The position numbers and the translations under genes are program-made. A stretch of 8,235 nt of DNA from a virus. Taxonomy: Duplodnaviria > Heunggongvirae > Uroviricota > Caudoviricetes. Shown piece after piece: positions 1-8,235 of this stretch; positions within the stretch are counted from its first letter, which is position 1; every line of letters starts with the position of its first letter. Location of the stretch: positions 1-8,235 of the IMG/VR virus record IMGVR_UViG_2778261058_000004; one strand, 5' to 3'. The notes below the pieces were generated by a model. That model did not search any database. It was not told the origin of the DNA and was given only the letters and a program-made list of their open reading frames with translations.

Positions 1-277
1 ACCCGGTGTTATCTCGAGGAAAGGATAGCCTCGCCATACTTACCGCCGCGCCATTCCGCGGATTGCCACAACCGGAAGCGTACGGTCGAATTAAATTTAA
101 CGACAAGCCTCATAGGTGAAGGCCTTCGCCGTACGCTTTCGTGTTATGCCCTGACTTTTCAGGGATATATCCTTTCAGTAAACTGTCAGTGCCGGATTCT
201 TATCCGTGTCCGGCGCACGACAACACGCTGTCACGTGTGGTCTCCATTCTCAACCAGTAACCTCAATGGAGGATAAA

Positions 278-616
278 ATGCCAAACAAGCCAATACATCC
301 GCTTATTGAAAAACAGATTGAATGCCTGGTTAATCAACTCAGGCAATCAGGGTTATTAAAAACTCATTCAGAGCCAGGGCTCACAGAATCGGCATTCGAC
401 GATAAATTAAATAATGCGCTTTATAATGGCATCATTGATTACAATCGTGGTGCTGGTCGCCGTGGACTGCTGGCACCGTCCTGTAATTCCAGTCAATCCA
501 GAGCGGATAGTGTTCAGCATAAATATAGTTATACACATCCAGGTTGTATTTGCGGTCTGTCCTTAGCAGGTCGCAAATACACGCCGCAGCTTCCAGGGCA
601 GCAGCTTTGTTGCTGA
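278..616 (+). CDS. Questionable ORF (113 aa from ATG 278); its 3' half overlaps the convergent 232-aa gene antisense
   Basis: GGAGG at 268-272 sits 5 nt before ATG 278. The N-terminal 50 residues look protein-like (MPNKPIHPLIEKQIECLVNQLRQSGLLKTHSEPGLTESAFDDKLNNALYNG) and use common E. coli codons, but the C-terminal half is Cys/Ser/Gly/Pro/Arg-rich and overlaps 432..616 of the minus-strand gene. The track ORF starts at GTG 206. Confidence 0.25.
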   Translation: MPNKPIHPLIEKQIECLVNQLRQSGLLKTHSEPGLTESAFDDKLNNALYNGIIDYNRGAGRRGLLAPSCNSSQSRADSVQHKYSYTHPGCICGLSLAGRKYTPQLPGQQLCC

Positions 617-1130
617 ATAACCATGTGGCAACATTCCGCTCCAACGCTCCTGCGGGACCAGATACCACGAAGGAGCCGTTGGTGTTGCCATCAAATACAT
701 CCATTTCCAGATTTTTACGTAATGCCTGGTGAATTCTTGCCAGATATTCAGTCGGAATTTCGCCACGAATTCGGATAAGGTTGTCATAAACAAACATGTT
801 CCCCGCATACGCATATGGCGATTTTTCTTTCTTGCTTTTTAAACCAGCATCATGAGCAAGCTGATCAATTTCTTCTTCCGTTGGTTTCGTATTGATGTTT
901 TGCACTGTCGCTTCTGCAATTTTCTTTGCCGAATTCTCTTCGTAACCATTGTTCGGGACTGAGTTAGAATACAGTCCGGTAAAAGAATTGCGGACATTAT
1001 TTGATAAATTTCTGATGAACACCTTATCTACTAAGATCATTGGGTTCCGCGCCAGTTGCGAGCGAATCACATCAGCGGCCATTTCCTGTATTGGTAGTGG
1101 TAAATCTTTAAATTCCATCGTCAGCCTCAT
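432..1130 (-). CDS. Hypothetical protein, 232 aa, unrecognised family; second gene of the leftward early operon
   Basis: Long minus-strand ORF. Its ATG at 1130 overlaps the TGA stop of the upstream 50-aa gene (TGATG, translational coupling). A second in-frame ATG at 1118 has GAGG 7 nt upstream. No motif recognised by eye. Confidence 0.6.
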   Translation of the reverse strand: MRLTMEFKDLPLPIQEMAADVIRSQLARNPMILVDKVFIRNLSNNVRNSFTGLYSNSVPNNGYEENSAKKIAEATVQNINTKPTEEEIDQLAHDAGLKSKKEKSPYAYAGNMFVYDNLIRIRGEIPTEYLARIHQALRKNLEMDVFDGNTNGSFVVSGPAGALERNVATWLFSNKAAALEAAACICDLLRTDRKYNLDVYNYIYAEHYPLWIDWNYRTVPAVHGDQHHDCNQ

Positions 1131-1282
1131 CAGTCAGTGTTTCTTGCTAACCAGCGACGCGCGCCAGATTCGGTTTTAAACGTTTTGCTTTTGGTATACG
1201 TCATCGCGGTGAACGTGCCGTCCTGGTTTGGGAACACGCCGTATACCAGAGATTCGTTGTTGCCAAGATCGATAGTATCCAT
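1130..1282 (-). CDS. Small protein, 50 aa, first gene of the leftward operon; possibly DUF1391 (YdfA/YdaF-like), family assignment from memory only
   Basis: ATG at 1282 is preceded by GAGGT about 5 nt upstream (minus sense aaatGAGGTcaacATG). Product MDTIDLGNNESLVYGVFPNQDGTFTAMTYTKSKTFKTESGARRWLARNTD. The track ORF (68 aa from 1336) has no Shine-Dalgarno (SD) sequence. Being first after the operator/promoter matches the position of ydfA in the Qin dicB operon. Confidence 0.5.
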   Translation of the reverse strand: MDTIDLGNNESLVYGVFPNQDGTFTAMTYTKSKTFKTESGARRWLARNTD

Positions 1283-1459
1283 GTTGACCTCATTTCCCCT
1301 TAACGCCGGGGTAGCGGAACAAAAAACCTGCTGCATAGTTAAAGTTGAACCCTGCCGTCATGTTCTTACGCCTCGGGCTGGCTACTTAACCCCTGACCAC
1401 TGCCTGGTAACTCGAAGTATTGCCCTGCGTTCTGTGGGGCGGGGTGGGGTGGTGGAAAT

Positions 1460-1489
1460 AATCTACAATTAAAAACTGTTTTGTGTCAA
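1460..1489 (-). promoter_or_regulatory. Putative sigma70 promoter for the leftward operon (pL-like): -35 TTGACA, 18-bp spacer, -10 TAGATT
   Basis: Minus strand reads TTGACA (plus 1484-1489), 18 nt, TAGATT (plus 1460-1465). The -35 lies inside the palindromic operator-like site. The predicted leader to ATG 1282 is about 170 nt. Confidence 0.45.
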
Positions 1490-1501
1490 CAGTTTTTAAT
1501 T
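1467..1501. promoter_or_regulatory. Operator-like perfect inverted repeat (OL-like): AATTAAAAACTGTT-N7-AACAGTTTTTAATT, core AAAAACTGT-N9-ACAGTTTTT
   Basis: 14-bp perfect arms read directly from the sequence. The same 9-bp half-site and 9-bp spacing recur at 2506-2532 in the repressor/cro intergenic region. Confidence 0.5.
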
Positions 1502-1513
1502 GTTGGGGTGGGT

Positions 1514-1538
1514 AAAAAAACTCCCTCGAATGAGGGAG
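1514..1538 (-). terminator. Rho-independent terminator of the repressor-antitoxin-toxin operon
   Basis: Minus strand carries stem CTCCCTC, loop ATTC, stem GAGGGAG, then a run of 7 T, starting about 18 nt after the toxin stop codon at 1556-1558. Confidence 0.65.
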
Positions 1539-1555
1539 TATGAAAATTGTTCAGT

Positions 1556-1843
1556 TCAGATAGGGAAGGGAAATTGTCGGCGGGCATGCACAATATTTGC
1601 AATTTCAATGCTTGAAGCTGCTACTCGGTACAAAACGATATAATTAGGGTGAACCACAATTTCCCGCAAACCGGATACTCGATCACTTGGCGGATATAGA
1701 TATGGATGCTCGGAGAGGGCTAAAACAGACGTTTCAATACGTATTTTTAGTCTGCGTGCTGCAGGAATATTTTCCTTAGCAATATAGGCTACGATCTGAC
1801 GCAAATCATCGCGAGCAGATGGTAGCCATAAAATGGGTAACAT
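1556..1843 (-). CDS. parE2: ParE/RelE-superfamily toxin, 95 aa (ParE2-like)
   Basis: Size and sequence pattern typical of ParE toxins (…LYRV…IEIANIVHARR…). Its ATG overlaps the stop of the upstream 63-aa gene. Third gene of a repressor/antitoxin/toxin operon, as in the paaR2-paaA2-parE2 locus of E. coli O157 prophages (from memory). Confidence 0.8.
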   Translation of the reverse strand: MLPILWLPSARDDLRQIVAYIAKENIPAARRLKIRIETSVLALSEHPYLYPPSDRVSGLREIVVHPNYIVLYRVAASSIEIANIVHARRQFPFPI

Positions 1844-2034
1844 TACTCGCTCCTGTTAGTTACAGCAATTTGAGCAATAAGATTTTCTATTTCAGCCATT
1901 ACCTCGTCATGTGGAATTGAGGGACGAGGGTCTGCAAGGCTTGACGCCACTTTAGCGCGCAACCATTCGTTGTAACTGTTTTCTTGTTCGGTAGTTTCGA
2001 ATTCTGAAACTATCGGAGAAAGGGCTGTACTCAT
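1843..2034 (-). CDS. paaA2: Small antitoxin, 63 aa (PaaA2-like, no DNA-binding domain)
   Basis: GAGGAG sits about 6 nt before ATG 2034. Acidic 63-aa product MSTALSPIVSEFETTEQENSYNEWLRAKV… immediately upstream of, and coupled to, the ParE-like toxin. Confidence 0.7.
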   Translation of the reverse strand: MSTALSPIVSEFETTEQENSYNEWLRAKVASSLADPRPSIPHDEVMAEIENLIAQIAVTNRSE

Positions 2035-2061
2035 GGCATAACTCCTCTTCTTGTACAGTGG

Positions 2062-2463
2062 TCACGCCCGGCGGCTTTTTTGTGCCGCCAACCACCGGGC
2101 AATGGTTTCTTCCATTGATTTTTTCTTGTCTTTGATTTCTTGAAGCATTTTTTCTTGGTCTTCCTCTGGAAACGCACTAAAAGCCTGGAGCAGTTCGCGT
2201 TGGCGAGGACCAATTTTCATCGTGTCAGGGGTGAAAATTTGCTCCCCCTCTTCAGGAGGCAATAAAAACCAATGCAATGGATGCCCTGTAACCTCAACCA
2301 GTTTATCCAAACTTGAGGCTTTAGGTGTAGCCTTACCGCTGACCCATTGTTGAACAGTTTGTTGTGTCACACCAATTCTACGGGCCAGCTCAGCCTGGCT
2401 CCATCCAGTTTCCTGAAGAAGCTTGCTGATTCTGTACATAGATACTTCTAGAGCGTTCATCAT
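2062..2463 (-). CDS. paaR2: DicA/PaaR2-like HTH (XRE-family) repressor, 133 aa; likely the prophage cI-equivalent and TA operon regulator
   Basis: N-terminal helix-turn-helix (WSQAELARRIGVTQQTVQQWVSG) and a C-terminal helical segment (RQRELLQAFSAFPEEDQEKM) resembling DicA architecture, with no S24 peptidase domain. Divergent from the cro-like gene. The first ATG has no SD and lies 7 nt after a TAAAAT -10 (possibly leaderless); ATG 2439 is an alternative start. Confidence 0.8.
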   Translation of the reverse strand: MMNALEVSMYRISKLLQETGWSQAELARRIGVTQQTVQQWVSGKATPKASSLDKLVEVTGHPLHWFLLPPEEGEQIFTPDTMKIGPRQRELLQAFSAFPEEDQEKMLQEIKDKKKSMEETIARWLAAQKSRRA

Positions 2464-2500
2464 TATTCAATTTTACAGGTAAATACTGTTAAAAGCATCA

Positions 2501-2537
2501 CAATAAAAAACTGTTGATCGCGTACAGTTTTTTATTG
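2501..2537. promoter_or_regulatory. Operator-like perfect inverted repeat (OR-like): CAATAAAAAACTGT-N9-ACAGTTTTTTATTG
   Basis: 14-bp perfect arms between the divergent repressor and cro-like genes, sharing the AAAAACTGT-N9-ACAGTTTTT core with 1471-1497. An extra half-site-like ACTGTT lies at 2485-2490. Confidence 0.5.
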
Positions 2538-2572
2538 TAGGCTTTGCCTGTAGTTTTTTAGAGGAGGGCAAA

Positions 2573-2845
2573 ATGCTAGATAGCACTCGCGAAAAAATTA
2601 GGCAGAAATACACTCAAGCTGAAATAGGTCGTTATATGGGGGTCGCTCAACAGACTGTTTGGCAATGGTTTAGCTTTGGTGTTCCCCCAAAGCAGGTAAT
2701 TCCGTTATGTCAGCTAATGAAGTGGGAAGTTACCCCGCATGAAATTCGCCCTGATATTTATCCTAACCCAACCGACGGGCTGCCTTGTGGAAATAAGTGT
2801 ATGGCGAATGAATCTCTGGCGGTGAACAATGAAAATCACCCCTGA
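2573..2845 (+). CDS. ydaS: Cro/YdaS-like small HTH regulator, 90 aa
   Basis: Strong SD GAGGAGGG at 2561-2568. HTH-like segment (IGRYMGVAQQTVWQWFSFG). Divergent from the repressor and followed by the YdaT-like gene, as in Rac and CP-933P (from memory). Confidence 0.75.
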   Translation: MLDSTREKIRQKYTQAEIGRYMGVAQQTVWQWFSFGVPPKQVIPLCQLMKWEVTPHEIRPDIYPNPTDGLPCGNKCMANESLAVNNENHP

Positions 2846-3350
2846 ACAGGTTCGTGAGGCTCTGGATGCTTGGGTATGCAGACCAGGAATGACACAGGAA
2901 CAGGCGACGATATTAATCACAGAAGCCTTCTGGGCCCTGAAAGAACGCCCGAACATCGATGTTCAACGTGTCACGTTTGATGATGGCGCGGTTGAGCAAC
3001 GGGCGCTTGGCGTTAACCGGGTGAAGATATTCGAACGCTGGAAAGCGATCGACACCAGGGATAAGCGGGAAAAATTCACGGCGTTGATTCCGGCAATCAT
3101 GGAGGCTATCCGGATAAGTGATTTCAGGTTGTATTGTGAAATTACTGATGGAAAAAGCATTACGTACATGCTCGCCGGGTTAAATAAAGAATATGGCGAT
3201 GTGGTGGAGTCCGGTCTGCTTTTGGCAGATCCCGCTGTTGTGGAGCGCGAGACTGACGAGCTTATAGAAAAAGCTATTGCTTTCAAGCATGCGTATCGTC
3301 AGCAATATCAACAAAAAGCCGGATGGAATTATGAGTCTTCTTTTTGCTGA
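2829..3350 (+). CDS. ydaT: YdaT-like protein, 173 aa (CII-equivalent position)
   Basis: Overlaps the cro-like gene by 17 nt. Synteny cro-like / this gene / replication initiator; the KREKFTALIPAIMEAI segment recalls Rac YdaT. Assignment is from memory. Confidence 0.7.
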   Translation: MKITPEQVREALDAWVCRPGMTQEQATILITEAFWALKERPNIDVQRVTFDDGAVEQRALGVNRVKIFERWKAIDTRDKREKFTALIPAIMEAIRISDFRLYCEITDGKSITYMLAGLNKEYGDVVESGLLLADPAVVERETDELIEKAIAFKHAYRQQYQQKAGWNYESSFC

Positions 3351-4296
3351 ACGCCCACTGGTTATTAACACTCAGCTGGCGATGAAAATAGGTCTGAACG
3401 AAGCCATTGTGTTACAGCAGCTGCATTACTGGTTGAGAGATACCGGTTCCGGCATGGAATGTGATGGTGTTCGCTGGATTTATAACACAACAGAACAATG
3501 GCTGGAACAGTTCCCGTTCTGGTCAGAGTCAACGTTAAAACGCGCATTTGCAAGTCTGAAAACGCTGGGGCTTTTGCGTTGCGAAAAGCTCAACAAATCA
3601 AAGCGTGATATGACTAATTTTTACACGATTAATTACGAGAGCGAGCTTTTAGATGGTGGCAAAGTGAGCGAATCCATCAGGTCAAAATGCGCCGCTCCAT
3701 CAGGTCAAAATGACACGATGGAAGAGGCCAAAATGGCACGCTCCATTGGTTCAAAACGACCCAATGTCATCGGGTCAAAATGGCCTGATGATCTTACAGA
3801 GAATACAACAGAGATTACTACAGAGAATAAAAACACTTCTCGTCCGGAAGCTTCGCAACCGGACATGCAGACGGCTGAACAGGATTTTTTAAACCGACAT
3901 CCTGACGCGGTTGTGTTCAGTGCGAAAAAACGCCAGTGGGGCAGCCAGGAAGATTTGGCGTGTGCGCAGTGGATCTGGGGACGAATCGTGAGTCTTTACG
4001 AGCAGGCTGCCAGCGATGATGGCGAAATCATGCGACCGAAAGAACCAAACTGGACTGCATGGGCCAATGATGTGCGCACAATGCGGATGCTGGATGGCAG
4101 AACTCACAGACAAATTTGCGAAATGTTTGGTCGGGCACAGCGGGATCCATTCTGGGTAAAAAACGTCATGAGCCCGTCAAAGCTTCGCGAAAAATGGGAT
4201 GAGCTGGTTATTCGTCTGGGGCGTTCGCCTGTACAGCGTTGTGTAAATCATATTTCTGAACCGGACACCGAAATTCCGCCGGGATTCAGGGGGTAA
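3331..4296 (+). CDS. Replication initiator (lambda O-like / YdaU-like), about 321 aa from ATG 3331
   Basis: Position between the CII-like and DnaC-like genes, and an iteron array plus AT-rich tract inside the coding sequence. The start is uncertain: the track ORF begins at TTG 3277 and ATG 3289 is also in frame; 3331 was chosen for the MSLLFAERPLV N-terminus. Confidence 0.75.
   Translation: MSLLFAERPLVINTQLAMKIGLNEAIVLQQLHYWLRDTGSGMECDGVRWIYNTTEQWLEQFPFWSESTLKRAFASLKTLGLLRCEKLNKSKRDMTNFYTINYESELLDGGKVSESIRSKCAAPSGQNDTMEEAKMARSIGSKRPNVIGSKWPDDLTENTTEITTENKNTSRPEASQPDMQTAEQDFLNRHPDAVVFSAKKRQWGSQEDLACAQWIWGRIVSLYEQAASDDGEIMRPKEPNWTAWANDVRTMRMLDGRTHRQICEMFGRAQRDPFWVKNVMSPSKLREKWDELVIRLGRSPVQRCVNHISEPDTEIPPGFRG
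3673..3835. repeat. Putative origin of replication: 4-5 iterons (consensus near TCCATCAGGTCAAAATG) at 23-bp periodicity, then an AT-rich tract with ACAGAGA(A/T)TA repeats
   Basis: Copies at 3673-3689 and 3696-3712 are identical; degenerate copies at about 3719-3735, 3742-3758 and 3767-3783. The AT-rich segment at about 3790-3835 has three ACAGAGAATA/ACAGAGATTA repeats. Confidence 0.6.
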
Positions 4297-4302
4297 CGAA
4301 GC

Positions 4303-5049
4303 ATGAAAAATATTGCGACAGGCGGTGTTCTTGAACGCATCCGTAAGCTGGCTCCGCAGCATGTAACCGCGCCATACCGAACAGTGGACGAGTGGCGCGA
4401 GTGGCAACTTGCAGAAGGCCAGAAGCGTTGCGAGGAGATCAACCGCCAGAATCGTCAGTTGTGGGTGGAAAAAATTCTGAATCGCTCCGGCATCCAGCCG
4501 TTGCACCGCAAGTGCTCGTTTGCGAATTACCAGGTGCAGAATGACGGCCAGCGATACGCGTTGAGCCAGGCGAAATCCATCGCCGATGAACTGATGTCCG
4601 GATGCACAAATTTCGCATTCAGCGGAAAACCTGGTACCGGGAAAAACCACTTAGCGGCGGCTATCGGGAATCGCCTGCTGAAAGATGGCCAGACAGTGAT
4701 TGTGGTTACCGTGGCTGATGTTATGAGTGCTCTACACGCCAGCTATGACGACGGGCAATCAGGCGAAAAATTTTTGCGGGAACTGTGCGAAGTGGATCTG
4801 CTGGTTCTTGATGAAATTGGCATTCAGCGCGAGACGAAAAACGAGCAGGTGGTACTGCACCAGATTGTTGATCGCCGGACAGCGTCGATGCGCAGCGTGG
4901 GAATGTTGACAAACTTGAACTATGAGGCCATGAAAACGCTGCTCGGCGAGCGGATTATGGATCGCATGACCATGAACGGCGGGCGATGGGTGAGTTTTAA
5001 CTGGGAGAGCTGGCGTTCAAATGTCAGCTATTTGAGGGTTGTTAAGTAA
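4303..5049 (+). CDS. DnaC-like helicase loader (AAA+ ATPase; YdaV-like), 248 aa
   Basis: Walker A FSGKPGTGKNHLAAAIG and Walker B DLLVLDEIG. Similar to E. coli DnaC along the whole length (SGIQPLHRKCSFANY…, MLTNLNYEAMKTLLGERIMDRM…). Confidence 0.9.
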   Translation: MKNIATGGVLERIRKLAPQHVTAPYRTVDEWREWQLAEGQKRCEEINRQNRQLWVEKILNRSGIQPLHRKCSFANYQVQNDGQRYALSQAKSIADELMSGCTNFAFSGKPGTGKNHLAAAIGNRLLKDGQTVIVVTVADVMSALHASYDDGQSGEKFLRELCEVDLLVLDEIGIQRETKNEQVVLHQIVDRRTASMRSVGMLTNLNYEAMKTLLGERIMDRMTMNGGRWVSFNWESWRSNVSYLRVVK

Positions 5050-5063
5050 TTTCATGAGGGCTT

Positions 5064-5459
5064 ATGGCAAAACCTTTTACACCCGAACAGCGGGAAGAGC
5101 TGAAGGCACGAATTATCGGGTTGGTACGCAAAAATGGACGCATGACGATGTCGCAACTGGAGAGAGCGACGGGAGCTGGCTGGCATTCGGTCCGACGCAG
5201 CCTTGTGGATGTACTGGCTTGTGGTGATTTATACATGTCCGGGGAATACGGTGTTTTTGCATCAGAGCAGGCGTATCGTGAATGGCGTAAGACACCGGAG
5301 AAAACAACTGACCAGACACTGATTCGAAAGTTACCAGACGGAGAAATACGCCGCTACGACAGACACCTGAACATAATCTGTCGCGAGTGCCGGAAGAGTG
5401 AGGTTATGCAGCGAGTGTTGGCGTTTTATCAGGGTAATTTTCAGGAGGTGATGGCGTGA
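5064..5459 (+). CDS. Hypothetical phage protein, 131 aa, possible winged-helix DNA-binding fold
   Basis: ATG 5064 follows GAGGG. Protein-like composition. Its stop TGA at 5457-5459 overlaps GTG 5456 of the next gene. Confidence 0.6.
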   Translation: MAKPFTPEQREELKARIIGLVRKNGRMTMSQLERATGAGWHSVRRSLVDVLACGDLYMSGEYGVFASEQAYREWRKTPEKTTDQTLIRKLPDGEIRRYDRHLNIICRECRKSEVMQRVLAFYQGNFQEVMA

Positions 5460-5755
5460 GGGTGAGAGTTTATATTGCCGGTCCAATGACCGGGTATAAA
5501 AATTTCAACCGTGAGGCGTTCCACAATGCGGAAGAGGAACTGAAACGGGAAGGGCATACAGTCTTAAACCCGGCAGTACTTCCGGACGGGCTGACACAGC
5601 CACACTACATGGATATTTGCATGGCAATGATTCGTTGTGTGGATGCGATTTACATGCTGAAAGGCTGGCAGCGGTCGGCAGGCGCTAAGGCAGAGCTGGC
5701 GCTGGCGGAGAAGCTGGGGCATGCAGTTATTTTCCAGGAGGCAAACAGTGAATAA
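5456..5755 (+). CDS. DUF4406-like protein (nucleoside 2-deoxyribosyltransferase-like fold), 99 aa
   Basis: AGGAGG at 5443-5448 sits 7 nt before GTG 5456. N-terminal VYIAGPMTG…FN…F motif and conserved GW…S.GA.AE segment, as recalled for DUF4406. Confidence 0.65.
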   Translation: MRVRVYIAGPMTGYKNFNREAFHNAEEELKREGHTVLNPAVLPDGLTQPHYMDICMAMIRCVDAIYMLKGWQRSAGAKAELALAEKLGHAVIFQEANSE

Positions 5756-6428
5756 CCAATGGCGACCAGATGTTTGCCCTATAACCGGACGTGCATTTTT
5801 CATGTGGATTGAGCATCCGAAATTGGGCAATGTGCCGACGTATGGCGGCCCATTAGACAGTTACACCATTCCAACAAGGGACAGCGATGGTGAGTTTTCG
5901 TGTGAGCGTTACGATCATGATTTCGGTGGCTGGGTAGAAAGCGAATGTCTTGGGTTATATCTGATTGATGATAAAGAACAATGCAGAGTCTACGAACTGG
6001 AGGAACGCATTGCAGAGCTGGAGACTAATCTTGCTGCACTTGCGGCGGAGAATGCGGGGCTGAATAAATTTATCGCACAGAGTTGCTACGTGTTTGATGG
6101 CGAGCAGGATGAACTATCTGATGCGTATATCTGCGCAATAGACGGAAGGATGCCGCAAACCCCAGCCACCGATGCTTTCCTGGCTGAAGTACGTGCGGAA
6201 GCACGCAACGAGGGGATTAACTATACCGCCAGCCGTCTTGCTGCTGCGTTCAATCACGGATTTATCAATAAGTCTTTACGTGAAGTTTTCGACGTTACGC
6301 GCATGATTCTGTCAGCGAAAGAAGAGTTGGCTAATGAACCGCACCCGATTGATGGTCTGTCCGGTGAATATGCGGAGAAATCCCTTGAAGAATGGGCGGA
6401 ACAGATTCGCAAAGGAGACAACCAGTGA
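5748..6428 (+). CDS. Hypothetical phage protein, about 226 aa, with a central coiled-coil; Ea22-like is a guess only
   Basis: AGGAGG at 5736-5741 sits 6 nt before in-frame GTG 5748, which overlaps the end of the DUF4406 gene. Heptad-like segment ELEERIAELETNLAALAAENAGLNKF. The track start ATG 5721 is an alternative. Confidence 0.55.
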   Translation: MNNQWRPDVCPITGRAFFMWIEHPKLGNVPTYGGPLDSYTIPTRDSDGEFSCERYDHDFGGWVESECLGLYLIDDKEQCRVYELEERIAELETNLAALAAENAGLNKFIAQSCYVFDGEQDELSDAYICAIDGRMPQTPATDAFLAEVRAEARNEGINYTASRLAAAFNHGFINKSLREVFDVTRMILSAKEELANEPHPIDGLSGEYAEKSLEEWAEQIRKGDNQ

Positions 6429-6679
6429 GTGAGTCAAAATGCCAAATTAATGGCAACAAGATAGAACCGTGTACGGCTCTGGCAAAATCCCTTGAGCATG
6501 ATGCTGAATACACGACGCGAAAAGGTCTGCTGATATACAAAATCTGGAATGAGAGTTTAACTCGCGGCCCTGATTTGGTGATGTTGCGTTCCGGTGAATT
6601 TTCTAAATCACCAGTGCGGGTTTCATTTTGTCCGTTCTGTGGTGAAAGTCTGAAAACGTGGGAGAACAGAAATGAATGA
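6425..6679 (+). CDS. Hypothetical small protein, 84 aa, with Cys pairs (C-x11-C … CPFC), possible zinc ribbon
   Basis: GTG 6425 overlaps the upstream stop (GTGA), with AGGAG at 6413-6417. The track start ATG 6392 is in frame but lies inside the previous gene. Confidence 0.5.
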   Translation: MSESKCQINGNKIEPCTALAKSLEHDAEYTTRKGLLIYKIWNESLTRGPDLVMLRSGEFSKSPVRVSFCPFCGESLKTWENRNE

Positions 6680-6983
6680 AATTAAAGAAATACCAGTAGT
6701 ACGTGATGAATATGGCTGCTGGACGCATCCTGAATATGAAAAATTCTGTGATGGTAGAGAACATATTTCAACGGAAGAGTTTAACGCATGGATGGAGGAA
6801 AATAATCTTCAATGGACCATCAGAACTATGGATGAAGATGATTTTAATCTGGACGCAGATGGTCCCGATATTGCCGCTTGGGAACCAGAGCGACCAGAGG
6901 GCGAAGGCTGGTTTGTTGGCTCTATTCATGACACTGAAGATGGTCCTGTTTGTGTATGGCTGAGAAATAAGGCTGAAGCATAA
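6672..6983 (+). CDS. Hypothetical acidic protein, 103 aa
   Basis: ATG 6672 overlaps the previous stop (ATGAATGA), with GGGAG about 8 nt upstream. Strongly acidic (DEDDFNLDADGPDIAAWEPERPEGEGW). Confidence 0.6.
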   Translation: MNEIKEIPVVRDEYGCWTHPEYEKFCDGREHISTEEFNAWMEENNLQWTIRTMDEDDFNLDADGPDIAAWEPERPEGEGWFVGSIHDTEDGPVCVWLRNKAEA

Positions 6984-7112
6984 AGGCGATAAATCACCTG
7001 GCAACAAAACACTGAAAAATTTAAATCAGAAGTGAATTTTATTAAATCCTTAACCGGAGGGATTCCTGCACCCTCAGAACATCAGGAGGCCGCCTGAAAG
7101 GGCGGTAATGAA

Positions 7113-7295
7113 ATGCGAAAGTTCAGAATAATAATTGAAACAGGAATGGCTGGTGGAGATTTTGAGGATGTATTCGAAGTGGATGATGGCGCGACACCAG
7201 ATGAAATACAGGACGAAGCAAAAGAAATTTTCTTTAACTACTGCAATTACTCATATCACGAAATAAAAGATGAGGAGGAAGAACAACATGGCTGA
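7113..7295 (+). CDS. Small highly acidic protein, 60 aa
   Basis: ATG 7113 follows AAAGGG. About 20 Asp/Glu against about 5 Lys/Arg, with a C-terminal DEEEEQ. Overlaps the next gene by 8 nt. Confidence 0.5.
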   Translation: MRKFRIIIETGMAGGDFEDVFEVDDGATPDEIQDEAKEIFFNYCNYSYHEIKDEEEEQHG

Positions 7296-7464
7296 TTTTG
7301 GTTCAACTAAATATAACGCCAGTTTTGAAGAATGGCATGAACTGTTAATGGACTATGCAGAGTTACGCGGTGGAAGTGCTGCTGATGCTGAAGCATGGCG
7401 TGATGATTATGAAGCAGGGAAAACACCGGTCGAAGCATATTGTGATGAGTGGGGCGATGAATGA
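7288..7464 (+). CDS. Small acidic protein, 58 aa from ATG 7288
   Basis: GAGGAGG at 7272-7278 sits 9 nt before ATG 7288. The track start ATG 7270 has no SD. Product MADFGSTKYNASFEEWHELLMDYAELRGGSAADAEAWRDDYEAGKTPVEAYCDEWGDE. Confidence 0.5.
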   Translation: MADFGSTKYNASFEEWHELLMDYAELRGGSAADAEAWRDDYEAGKTPVEAYCDEWGDE

Positions 7465-7516
7465 GCGGGATTAATTATCAGGAAAGGTTTGAAAAATATC
7501 AAGAAGGGGCTACGGC

Positions 7517-7861
7517 ATGACGACTTTTACCAGAGAGCAGTTAATAGCTCACGCAGAGGAGACGATTGAGGCACAGAGACTGTGCATACCGGGTACAATC
7601 GACCATGACATCATCCGCACATATAAGATGGATATTGCTGTTCTGGAAATTGCACTGGCATCACTGGCAGCGGAGTCAGCCGGTAAATTGCATGAATACA
7701 AACCAGTGGGGTACCAGCGTCTGGTCGACGAGTTAACCATGCTGGTAAAGCAGTTAACCTGGCAACTGAGGAAAGTGAAGCCGGACTGTAAATTGCCGGA
7801 TAAGGCGATGGACTACCTGAAGCGGAACGAACTGATAAGCGCGGAGGATGTTTTGCGATGA
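7517..7861 (+). CDS. Hypothetical phage protein, 114 aa
   Basis: GAAGGGG at 7503-7509 sits 7 nt before ATG 7517. Protein-like, mostly helical-looking composition. Its stop overlaps the start of the next small ORF (ATGA). Confidence 0.6.
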
Positions 7862-7941
7862 CCCGGCCTGAAGCATTCACAACGGTAGGAATTGCGATGG
7901 CGGTGGCGCTGGTGGTGTATTCGATTTGCCGCTGGGGATAA
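7858..7941 (+). CDS. Putative small hydrophobic (single transmembrane) peptide, 27 aa
   Basis: ATG 7858 overlaps the upstream stop (ATGA), with GGAGG at 7843-7847. Product [27 protein letters not shown]. Too short for the 60-aa track. Confidence 0.35.
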
Positions 7942-7948
7942 AAACGGT

Positions 7949-7976
7949 TTGCGGGAAAAGGAGAGTTAAGTAGAAT
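7949..7976 (+). promoter_or_regulatory. Candidate promoter for the hok transcript: -35 TTGCGG, 16-bp spacer, -10 TAGAAT
   Basis: Hexamers read from the sequence. The predicted transcript start near 7984 would give a leader of about 170 nt before hok, the scale expected for hok-family mRNAs. Confidence 0.3.
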
Positions 7977-7990
7977 TGCTGCGGGTGCTT

Positions 7991-8031
7991 GAGGCTATCT
8001 GCCTCAGGCATGAACACCAAAAGGCAGATAG
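7991..8031 (+). promoter_or_regulatory. Structured hok leader: CTATCTGCC (7995-8003) pairs with GGCAGATAG (8023-8031), with nested GAGGC/GCCTC and TGCCT-c-AGGCA hairpins
   Basis: Inverted repeats seen directly. hok-family mRNAs are known for extensive 5' secondary structure that controls translation. Confidence 0.4.
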
Positions 8032-8095
8032 AGAAAAGCCCCAGTTAACATTACGCGTCCGGCAAGACGCTTAACATTAATCTGAGGCATTCTGT

Positions 8096-8155
8096 ATGCG
8101 ACACATAGAGATTAGCCTCTTACGGACCGAAAGGTCAAGGAGAAGCAGGCTATGA
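8096..8155 (+). CDS. Leader mini-ORF (19 codons, MRHIEISLLRTERSRRSRL) ending in ATGA overlap with the hok start; mok-like coupling element
   Basis: GAGG at 8084-8087 sits 8 nt before ATG 8096. Its stop TGA at 8153-8155 overlaps the hok ATG at 8152-8154. Confidence 0.3.
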   Translation: MRHIEISLLRTERSRRSRL

Positions 8156-8235
8156 AGCAGCAAAAGGCGATGTTAATCGTCCTGATCGTCATCTGTTTAA
8201 CCGTCATAGTGACGGCACTGGTAACGAGGAAAGAC
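8152..8235 (+). CDS. hok: Hok/Gef-family type I toxin, N-terminal 28 codons only (hokD/relF-like); continues beyond the window
   Basis: AAGGAG at 8137-8142 sits 9 nt before the ATG. Translation MKQQKAMLIVLIVICLTVIVTALVTRKD matches the transmembrane N-terminus of Hok/RelF proteins as recalled. Confidence 0.85.
   Translation, partial: MKQQKAMLIVLIVICLTVIVTALVTRKD

Follow-up and report, generated by a model that had tools for sequence, protein, structure and literature searches.

In phage T4, the ribosome-binding sites of the genes 38 and 25 have been shown experimentally to be split, a hairpin reducing the spacing between the Shine-Dalgarno (SD) sequence and the start codon from 22 to 5 nucleotides (nt) and from 27 to 11 nt, respectively (PMC3014915). 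The T4-type phages also contain the PeSL cassettes, the conserved intergenic repeats at module joints that mediate gene shuffling (PMC2839356, PMC4122927), and for the lambdoid mosaics the short conserved boundary sequences are an old idea, as cited in PMC3029335, into which the element described here fits. The present analysis concerns a stretch of 8,235 nt (the window; positions 1 to 8,235 of the IMG/VR record IMGVR_UViG_2778261058_000004) and, within it, the interval 5064-7941, a chain of nine protein open reading frames (ORFs; g1 to g9) and a 19-codon relay ORF, whose sole untranslated break carries a conserved leader cassette with an SD and a hairpin, H2, before the start codon of g6. The interval, the portable cassette included, very probably belongs as an ordinary accessory part to the early rightward operon of a lambdoid Escherichia coli prophage of the Rac/Qin type, and the full statement, which joins the prophage operon and the portable cassette with a split-SD mechanism, is judged rather probable when taken jointly. 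The gene chain itself adds nothing new: it is a mosaic block, typical of prophages, of genes without an assigned function.

The cassette resembles the leaders of T4 genes 38 and 25 in a distant SD, at 23 nt, and in a stable hairpin that would shorten this distance to 7 nt. However, the two arrangements are not homologous, and the one described here is portable, standing before at least five unrelated genes, and is a predicted one. With the PeSL and the boundary sequences it shares the form of a short conserved intergenic repeat at the joints of exchangeable genes, the occurrence in several copies per genome, and the indels or replacements bounded by its copies. In contrast, the PeSL consists of a strong early promoter and a terminator stem-loop, neither of which was detected in the cassette, while the cassette consists of stop codons and a translation-initiation region and is hence intercistronic rather than a boundary of transcription units. 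The break and its parts are as follows:

6984-7041, plus strand: AT-rich spacer, 31% GC, with further stop codons; the form of the cassette's 5' part that is linked to g5
7042-7112, plus strand: conserved leader cassette, 52% GC; covariance-model match at 7042-7108 (97 bits), the single copy in the window
7084-7089, plus strand: SD AGGAGG, directly abutting H2
7090-7105, plus strand: hairpin H2, CCGCCU-GAAA-GGGCGG, six pairs with a GNRA tetraloop

An earlier sequence-only reading of the window had pointed to the 129 nt at 6984-7112 as an AT-rich gap, the only sizeable one in the chain, with a hairpin written as CCGCC-tgaaag-GGCGG and possibly an internal promoter or terminator. It is indeed the only untranslated break, but only its 5' half is AT-rich; the hairpin is real, but is better drawn with six pairs closing a GAAA loop; and neither of the transcription signals was detected by the scans of the plus strand, in which neither the gap of the window nor its commoner variant (locus L085) gave a sigma-70-like promoter or a hairpin with a trailing T-run. 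H2, which is followed by UAAUGAAAUG, was ruled out as an intrinsic terminator, as no T-run stands after either hairpin, and no family of Rfam 15 matches the gap at E<=1, sok being the only match in the window. The start codon of g6 (AUG, 7113) lies 7 nt after H2 and, in the unfolded leader, 23 nt after the end of the SD (7089). H2 is predicted to be folded in every context tried, with the probability of being unpaired about 0.01, and carries a GGCA tetraloop in some cassette variants. Upstream, the cassette core has an anti-SD-like AAUCCUU and two mutually exclusive hairpins, 7045-7051/7058-7064 or 7057-7061/7071-7075, of which ViennaRNA favours the pairing AAUCCUU/AGGGAUU over GAGGG/CCCUC. 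Among 30 unique leaders, chosen by protein similarity and therefore unbiased by any DNA pattern, the GGAG core of the SD is invariant (30/30), and the 3' arm of H2 occurs also as GGGTGG, GGGCAG, GGACGG and TGGCGG. At the 5' side, the upstream ORF elsewhere ends inside CTGAATAATTAAAT in 76 of 119 unique instances; this sequence, which is separated by 26-32 nt from the ATCCTT of the core downstream, contains a stop in each of the three frames and closes ORFs with at least five different C-termini. In the window, the spacer of the g5-linked variant is longer.

The portability of the cassette is seen on both of its sides. Regardless of the preceding gene, the 71 nt at its 3' end are conserved before g6, and the identical leader stands before at least five unrelated ORF families (DUF7167, DUF4014, and those beginning MQDIKENIRQ..., MTELTKEQLI... 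and MGITKERLLE...), with the similarity ending just after H2. In the screen of complete E. coli genomes (n=5426), the cassette was found by megablast in 2280, at up to five places per genome and always in unannotated DNA. Two copies within one prophage were recognized by the covariance model in strain SA53-3 (L001), and in another locus (L002) only a partial cassette survives, consisting of the SD and H2. The cassette is also found with the homologues of g6, g7 and g8 in the early-left region of Stx2a phages such as ArgO145, where the exo-xis/b-region has the same modules (g6, g7, Ea22-like, cassette, DUF4014, HNH, g8), whereas here they belong to the early-right operon. The 63 unique variants of the cassette are 95% identical; the diversity of the leader (0.069) is lower than that at the third codon positions of g6/g7 in the same loci (0.12) and higher than that at the first and second positions, which is compatible with constraint but is no proof of it. 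The exact hairpin string was in no paper found by the literature search, and no description of the element was found in Rfam or, by a limited search, in the searchable literature.

In the proposed mechanism, the cassette (about 100-130 nt) would join two trains of genes, train 1 with g1-g5 (5064-6983) and train 2 with g6, g7, the relay ORF, g8 and g9 (7113-7941). Its 5' end would provide the stop codons and the AT-rich spacer, and its 3' end a complete translation-initiation region, in which the 16-nt H2 between the SD and the AUG would, when folded, shorten the spacing from 23 nt to 7 nt. A hairpin-bridged split SD that restarts the translation of train 2 is proposed tentatively, its chances being put at slightly under even, and this interpretation is favoured because the change from 23 to 7 nt matches the arrangement of T4 genes 38 and 25. 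The AUG stands 6-9 nt after H2 in the downstream families whose A/U-rich tails lack an SD of their own, and one downstream family with an 11-nt tail has its own GGAG. As one cassette flanks many different genes, it may also provide the prophages with a stretch of homology for the exchange, insertion and deletion of modules, the pattern of such exchanges being visible in the genomes and the mechanism conjectural.

Several observations weigh against a selected, bridging hairpin. The covariation in H2 and the upstream hairpin is no better than chance, with 96.8% paired cells against 96.7% in shuffled alignments of the 63 variants; only one pair is changed on both sides, and there two compensated variants stand against eight with an A.C mismatch. 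The arms of H2 are the most variable part of the leader (diversity 0.10-0.20), and its 3' arm, GGGCGG, is weakly SD-like and lies 5 nt from the AUG, so that the hairpin could mask an SD instead of bridging one. The predicted accessibility of AGGAGG is 0.35-0.69, since the upstream CCCUC or UCCUU can pair with it. Much of the leader conservation could stem from recent spread and recombination and not from selection, and in one scan of species-representative genomes the cassette was confined to Escherichia and Shigella, together with one Collinsella scaffold. Separately, an apparent GAGTG/CACTC compensation was discarded, because the indexing shows a U.U mismatch in the consensus register.

The same variable and weakly SD-like arm is the starting point of another explanation, considered improbable, in which H2 is a translational attenuator or sensor: the working ribosome-binding site would be either the masked 3' arm of H2 (GGGCGG) or AGGAGG masked by CCCUC/UCCUU, and train 2 would be expressed weakly, or to a degree set by temperature or by another factor that melts the structure. 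Within 25 nt of the AUG, AGGGCGGUA is the strongest SD-like match, with -7.8 kcal/mol and a 5-nt spacing, and it lies inside H2; the minimum-energy folds pair AGGAGG with CCUC or UCCU, with its probability of being unpaired 0.35-0.45 in the longer contexts; and the leader contains two anti-SD-like and two SD-like motifs. However, it is the GGAG of the upstream SD that is invariant, while the 3' arm of H2 varies, and H2 abuts the SD exactly and keeps the AUG at 6-9 nt in unrelated genes, as bridging predicts. A low probability is likewise given to a cassette devoid of function, a hitch-hiking piece of shared intergenic DNA left as a recombination scar or linker, with the hairpin incidental. Short conserved boundary sequences have long been proposed as phage-mosaic joints (PMC3029335), and such a linker would agree with the lack of significant covariation among variants 95% identical, with the restriction to Escherichia/Shigella and with the blastn breakpoints that coincide with both cassette ends. 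Against it stand the leader diversity of 0.069, below the 0.12 at third codon positions of the adjacent genes, the persistence of SD and hairpin as the remnant when the cassette is truncated, and the downstream genes that have no other SD, because of which the cassette must drive their translation.

A signal of transcription in the gap, such as an internal promoter in the AT-rich half, a terminator, an attenuator or an antitermination site (nut/boxA-like or put-like), is very unlikely. The 5' half is AT-rich (31% GC), and the gap contains AUCCUUAAC, which may bear a loose likeness to boxA. The PeSL cassettes of T4, in which a promoter and a terminating stem-loop stand together at module joints, also set an example (PMC2839356). 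However, the spacer has no sigma-70-like site on the plus strand, and neither a hairpin with a T-run nor an Rfam match at E<=1 was found in the gap. RNase III requires hairpins longer than those in the gap, which counts against such a signal as well. A role of the cassette as target or flank of a homing element, whose HNH endonuclease would cut the cassette-bearing genomes and copy its module in, is extremely improbable: the order cassette-DUF4014-HNH endonuclease does occur in strain SA53-3 and phage ArgO145, and a scar in the window records the loss of exactly this block, but DUF7167, or another gene without HNH in the vicinity, stands after most of the cassette copies. The split SD remains the preferred account of the leader. 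Its extension, that the cassette is a selected mobile operon adapter, a junction of stop, spacer, split SD and start by which any ORF could be plugged into an early operon, is regarded as doubtful.

Some further records touch the distribution of the cassette. The Collinsella scaffold, from a metagenome-assembled genome (L210), has a full-length covariance-model match of 99.6 bits, and PP818812.1 (Actinobacillus phage vB_Apl-pPE4) contains parts of the chain with the cassette at 11142-13189 (94-96% identity); both hold E. coli prophage sequence, and the host assignment or binning may be wrong. The pattern matches in Oceanirhabdus and Gudongella were not confirmed by the covariance model. In three loci (L096, L112, L194), the variant GGATGG, with a broken pair of the upstream hairpin, co-occurs with g6 cut to 36 amino acids (aa), and these may be decaying copies. 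In L095 (9343-9406) and L199 (minus strand), the similarity stops right after the hairpin and is followed by AT-rich non-coding DNA with no start codon, which fits recombination at the 3' edge of the hairpin. The Pas small RNAs were rejected as the identity of the cassette, since they belong to other prophage regions and gave no match in the preprint text, their sequences themselves not being compared directly.

The genes on both sides of the break form a plus-strand chain:

g1, 5064-5459, plus strand: 131 aa, DUF977 family, basic (isoelectric point, pI, 9.5), starting 14 nt past the stop of the DnaC/IstB-like loader gene
g2, 5456-5755, plus strand: 99 aa, DUF4406 (nucleoside 2-deoxyribosyltransferase-like superfamily)
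g3, 5748-6428, plus strand: 226 aa from GTG 5748 (235 aa from ATG 5721), acidic
g4, 6425-6679, plus strand: 84 aa, PHROG 4030 (E 2e-40, the match starting at the GTG start)
g5, 6672-6983, plus strand: 103 aa, PHROG 1372, very acidic (pI 4.1)
g6, 7113-7295, plus strand: 60 aa, DUF7167, very acidic (pI 4.1), first gene of train 2
g7, 7288-7464, plus strand: 58 aa, PHROG 519 (E 2e-23), very acidic (pI 4.05)
relay ORF, 7461-7520, plus strand: 19 codons, with an ATGA overlap at each end
g8, 7517-7861, plus strand: 114 aa, PHROG 660 (E 1e-38)
g9, 7858-7941, plus strand: 27 aa, hydrophobic

Where the sequence-only reading had counted eight genes, the interval has nine ORFs and the 19-codon ORF besides, and the 52 nt at 7465-7516, which would otherwise be a gap, are translated, being filled by the relay ORF. 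The six junctions that it listed are present exactly as described: GTGA with a 4-nt overlap at g1/g2 (5456-5459), GTGAATAA with an 8-nt overlap at g2/g3 (5748-5755), GTGA at g3/g4 (6425-6428), ATGAATGA at g4/g5 (6672-6679), ATGGCTGA with an 8-nt overlap at g6/g7 (7288-7295) and ATGA at g8/g9 (7858-7861). With the ATGA overlaps of the relay ORF with the stop of g7 and the start of g8, the overlapping junctions number eight in total, each of 4 or 8 nt, and the RefSeq annotation of related prophages, made independently, has the same overlaps. Each overlapping start has an SD-like motif 3-9 nt before it, inside the preceding gene, with anti-SD duplex energies of -6 to -12 kcal/mol; the GTG start of g3 at 5748 has AGGAGG 7 nt upstream, the in-frame ATG at 5721 being its alternative. 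The chain had been read as one translationally coupled unit, and its co-directional, tightly packed genes with stop/start overlaps do fit such coupling, which is itself deduced from the arrangement. As the next start overlaps the stop and its SD lies inside the upstream gene, a terminating ribosome could restart on the next gene, never leaving the messenger RNA.

That several of these ORFs might not be conserved as coding sequences had been named as the weak point of the chain; purifying selection was found in every ORF with full-length comparators, that is, in eight, the full-length g3 having no comparator in the set. The ratios of nonsynonymous to synonymous polymorphism (pN/pS) are 0.08-0.39 (g1 0.18, g2 0.11, g4 0.39, g5 0.26, g6 0.08 over 28 unique alleles, g7 0.10, g8 0.21, g9 0.29), the variable sites are in excess at the third codon positions, and the frames are intact in nearly all unique alleles. 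All eight ORFs of at least 58 aa match PHROG families (E 1e-23 to 1e-55). Accordingly, the view that none but the DUF4406-like protein is recognizable has to be given up, with g1 in DUF977, g6 in DUF7167 and eight ORFs in PHROG.

The g1 protein matches Pfam DUF977 (E 9e-63) and phrog_142 (E 5e-44), a family that contains lambda Ren also and that PHROG annotates as a Ren-like exclusion protein. In a single BLASTP comparison, g1 and lambda Ren, which has no Pfam family, share only a 20-residue C-terminal motif (11/20 identical, E 1e-6), and g1 lies directly after the helicase-loader gene, as Ren does. The last third of g1 (5330-5459), which includes this motif, stays conserved in DNA sequence among variants whose proteins are otherwise only about 54% identical, and 55 blastn alignments begin near 5330. 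In the ren-nin region of lambda, ren is located after P, and the genes of this region, ren and nin, are also small and overlap one another; however, none of the nine proteins has a Pfam match to NinB/Orf, NinC, NinE, NinF, NinG/Rap, NinH or NinI at E<=0.01. The label nin-like, attached to the chain by the sequence-only reading, is thus kept for its position only, in the rightward early operon from the replication genes to Q, with no match to a lambda nin family and with the Ren motif of g1 as the only shared feature.

The g2 protein belongs to Pfam DUF4406 (E 1e-37; 128.8 bits against a gathering cutoff of 22) and phrog_355 (E 9e-48), whose label, nucleoside 2-deoxyribosyltransferase, is an annotation only; some phage records name the family LygF. 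The g3 protein consists of an N-terminal domain, a coiled coil and, after these, the C-terminal domain of the proteins that RefSeq calls ead/Ea22-like, with the phrog_614/368 matches spanning its residues 92-235. Each of its halves is common and occurs separately in many genomes, whereas the full combination is present in 3 of the 5426 complete E. coli genomes, and to judge by its sequence g3 is a chimera joined within the coiled-coil segment. In one of these three (L084, 4395-5075), RefSeq shows only a shorter ORF of 468 nt, although the full 681-nt frame is open, with the GTG overlap start. The structure of lambda Ea22 protein has been reported by nuclear magnetic resonance (PMC10834534), and Ea22 was reported to favour lysogeny (PMC7093339). 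However, g3 has no detectable sequence similarity to any solved structure, the phmmer search of all PDB chains giving nothing relevant at E<=1, and its Ea22 label rests only on the RefSeq names of its relatives. In the g4 alignment the FCPFCGESLKTW motif is invariant and C6 nearly invariant, there being four Cys in all, so that going by the Cys motif g4 may bind zinc; its AlphaFold2 model is unusable, with a predicted local distance difference test score of 45. The g5 family is widespread in the prophages of Enterobacterales, and its confident predicted structure has no relative among the solved folds.

In train 2, g6 matches Pfam DUF7167 (E 6e-13) and phrog_1997 (E 2e-28) and is adjoined by g7 with the identical overlap in 82 of 82 related loci examined. 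By the tblastn match pattern, the conserved part of g8 is formed by residues 63-114, with g9 always next. The g9 ORF, probably a single-pass membrane peptide, is found in 62 related loci with the frame intact in all 22 unique nucleotide variants, and an ATGA always couples it to the conserved C-terminal part of the g8-type proteins, including those with a different N-terminus. It is left out of the RefSeq annotation in the relatives examined, and GenBank has a single call of the identical sequence, under the name bacteriophage protein.

The working view of the chain proteins as accessory early genes for host takeover, exclusion or anti-defence is drawn from their position and composition only. 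No sequence relative of g1-g5 and g8 was found among the PDB structures, and no chain protein matched the defence-system profiles. No match to the NCBIfam profiles was found either, and the literature searched for DUF4406, DUF977, DUF4014 and DUF7167 gave nothing functional. The proteins of g3, g5, g6 and g7 are strongly acidic (pI 4.05-4.4, net charge -12 to -22), a composition also encountered in the DNA-mimic and anti-restriction proteins of phages.

The modular character of the chain was apparent from the comparison with E. coli genomes, pieces of the interval being found in 3720 of 5426 and coverage of at least 80% in none; the best match to the whole window covers 75%. In the blastn comparison with about 200 related loci, the breakpoints cluster at the gene boundaries 5450, 5750, 6420, 6670, 7490, 7850 and 7940 and at both cassette ends (7010-7040 and 7100-7110). 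The pairs g4+g5, g6+g7 and the C-terminal half of g8 with g9 always travel together. From these sequence comparisons, the chain genes are conserved, exchangeable accessory modules with exchange joints at the gene boundaries. The selection set comprised 80 IMG/VR loci recovered with g6, together with annotated E. coli loci.

The relay ORF preserves a record of such an exchange. Its codons 1-8 are the start of the Ea22-like gene (MSEINYQ...) that follows g7 in most loci, and its last ten codons are the end of the gene that elsewhere precedes g8 (the HNH endonuclease in strain SA53-3, L001). Because the two ends match two different genes of relatives, the relay ORF is read from sequence as the scar of an in-frame deletion in which both ATGA overlaps were preserved. 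Relative to strain SA53-3, the window has lost the Ea22-like gene, the second cassette, DUF4014 and HNH.

The setting of the chain is that of the Rac/Qin-type prophages (ydaS-ydaT-ydaU-ydaV-ydaW...), with the same order of repressor, cro-like gene, YdaT-like gene, replication initiator and DnaC-like loader, continued rightward by the DUF977 (ydaW-type) gene and small overlapping ORFs towards RusA and Q; the difference is the exact combination of modules, absent at a coverage of 80% or above from all 5426 complete E. coli genomes screened. On the 5' side of the chain stand a ParE/PaaA2 toxin-antitoxin pair and a cI-like helix-turn-helix repressor gene (minus strand), followed by the YdaS-like cro gene, the YdaT-like gene, a 339-aa ORF in the slot annotated as a DnaT-like initiator in relatives, and the DnaC/IstB-like loader. 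The chain is bordered by the replication genes (ydaU/ydaV type) and, at its 3' end, by an adjoining hok/sok module; in related E. coli prophages DUF968, RusA and Q come after the same block, Q itself lying outside the window. The flanking modules are located as follows:

1556-2034, minus strand: PaaA2-type antitoxin (63 aa) and ParE-family toxin (95 aa) genes, wedged between the cI-like repressor gene and a DUF1391 (ydfA-like) gene in the leftward operon
7983-8154: sok, Rfam match of 106 bits
8097: beginning of a mok-like ORF
8153: beginning of the hok ORF (MKQQKAMLIVLIVICLTVIVTALVTRKD...), cut off by the window end

The closest relative of the whole window is E. coli 401651 (L083), where the DnaC-like loader is annotated as frameshifted (7406-8151) and DUF1627 with a DNA-binding protein takes the place of the DUF977 gene.

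The cassette is a concrete and very common example of the boundary sequences long proposed for the exchange of lambdoid modules. If the split SD is true, it would be a second natural setting for split ribosome-binding sites, and if the adapter is true as well, the lambdoid phages would have in it their counterpart of the T4 PeSL, acting in translation and present unannotated in about 40% of complete E. coli genomes. It offers a cheap marker for annotation, the start codon being expected 6-11 nt after the hairpin, and an experimental handle on the expression of accessory genes in the Stx and Rac-type prophages. The fixed pairs (g4+g5, g6+g7 and the g8 C-terminus with g9) and the small, very acidic proteins would be sensible choices when screening for host takeover or anti-defence.

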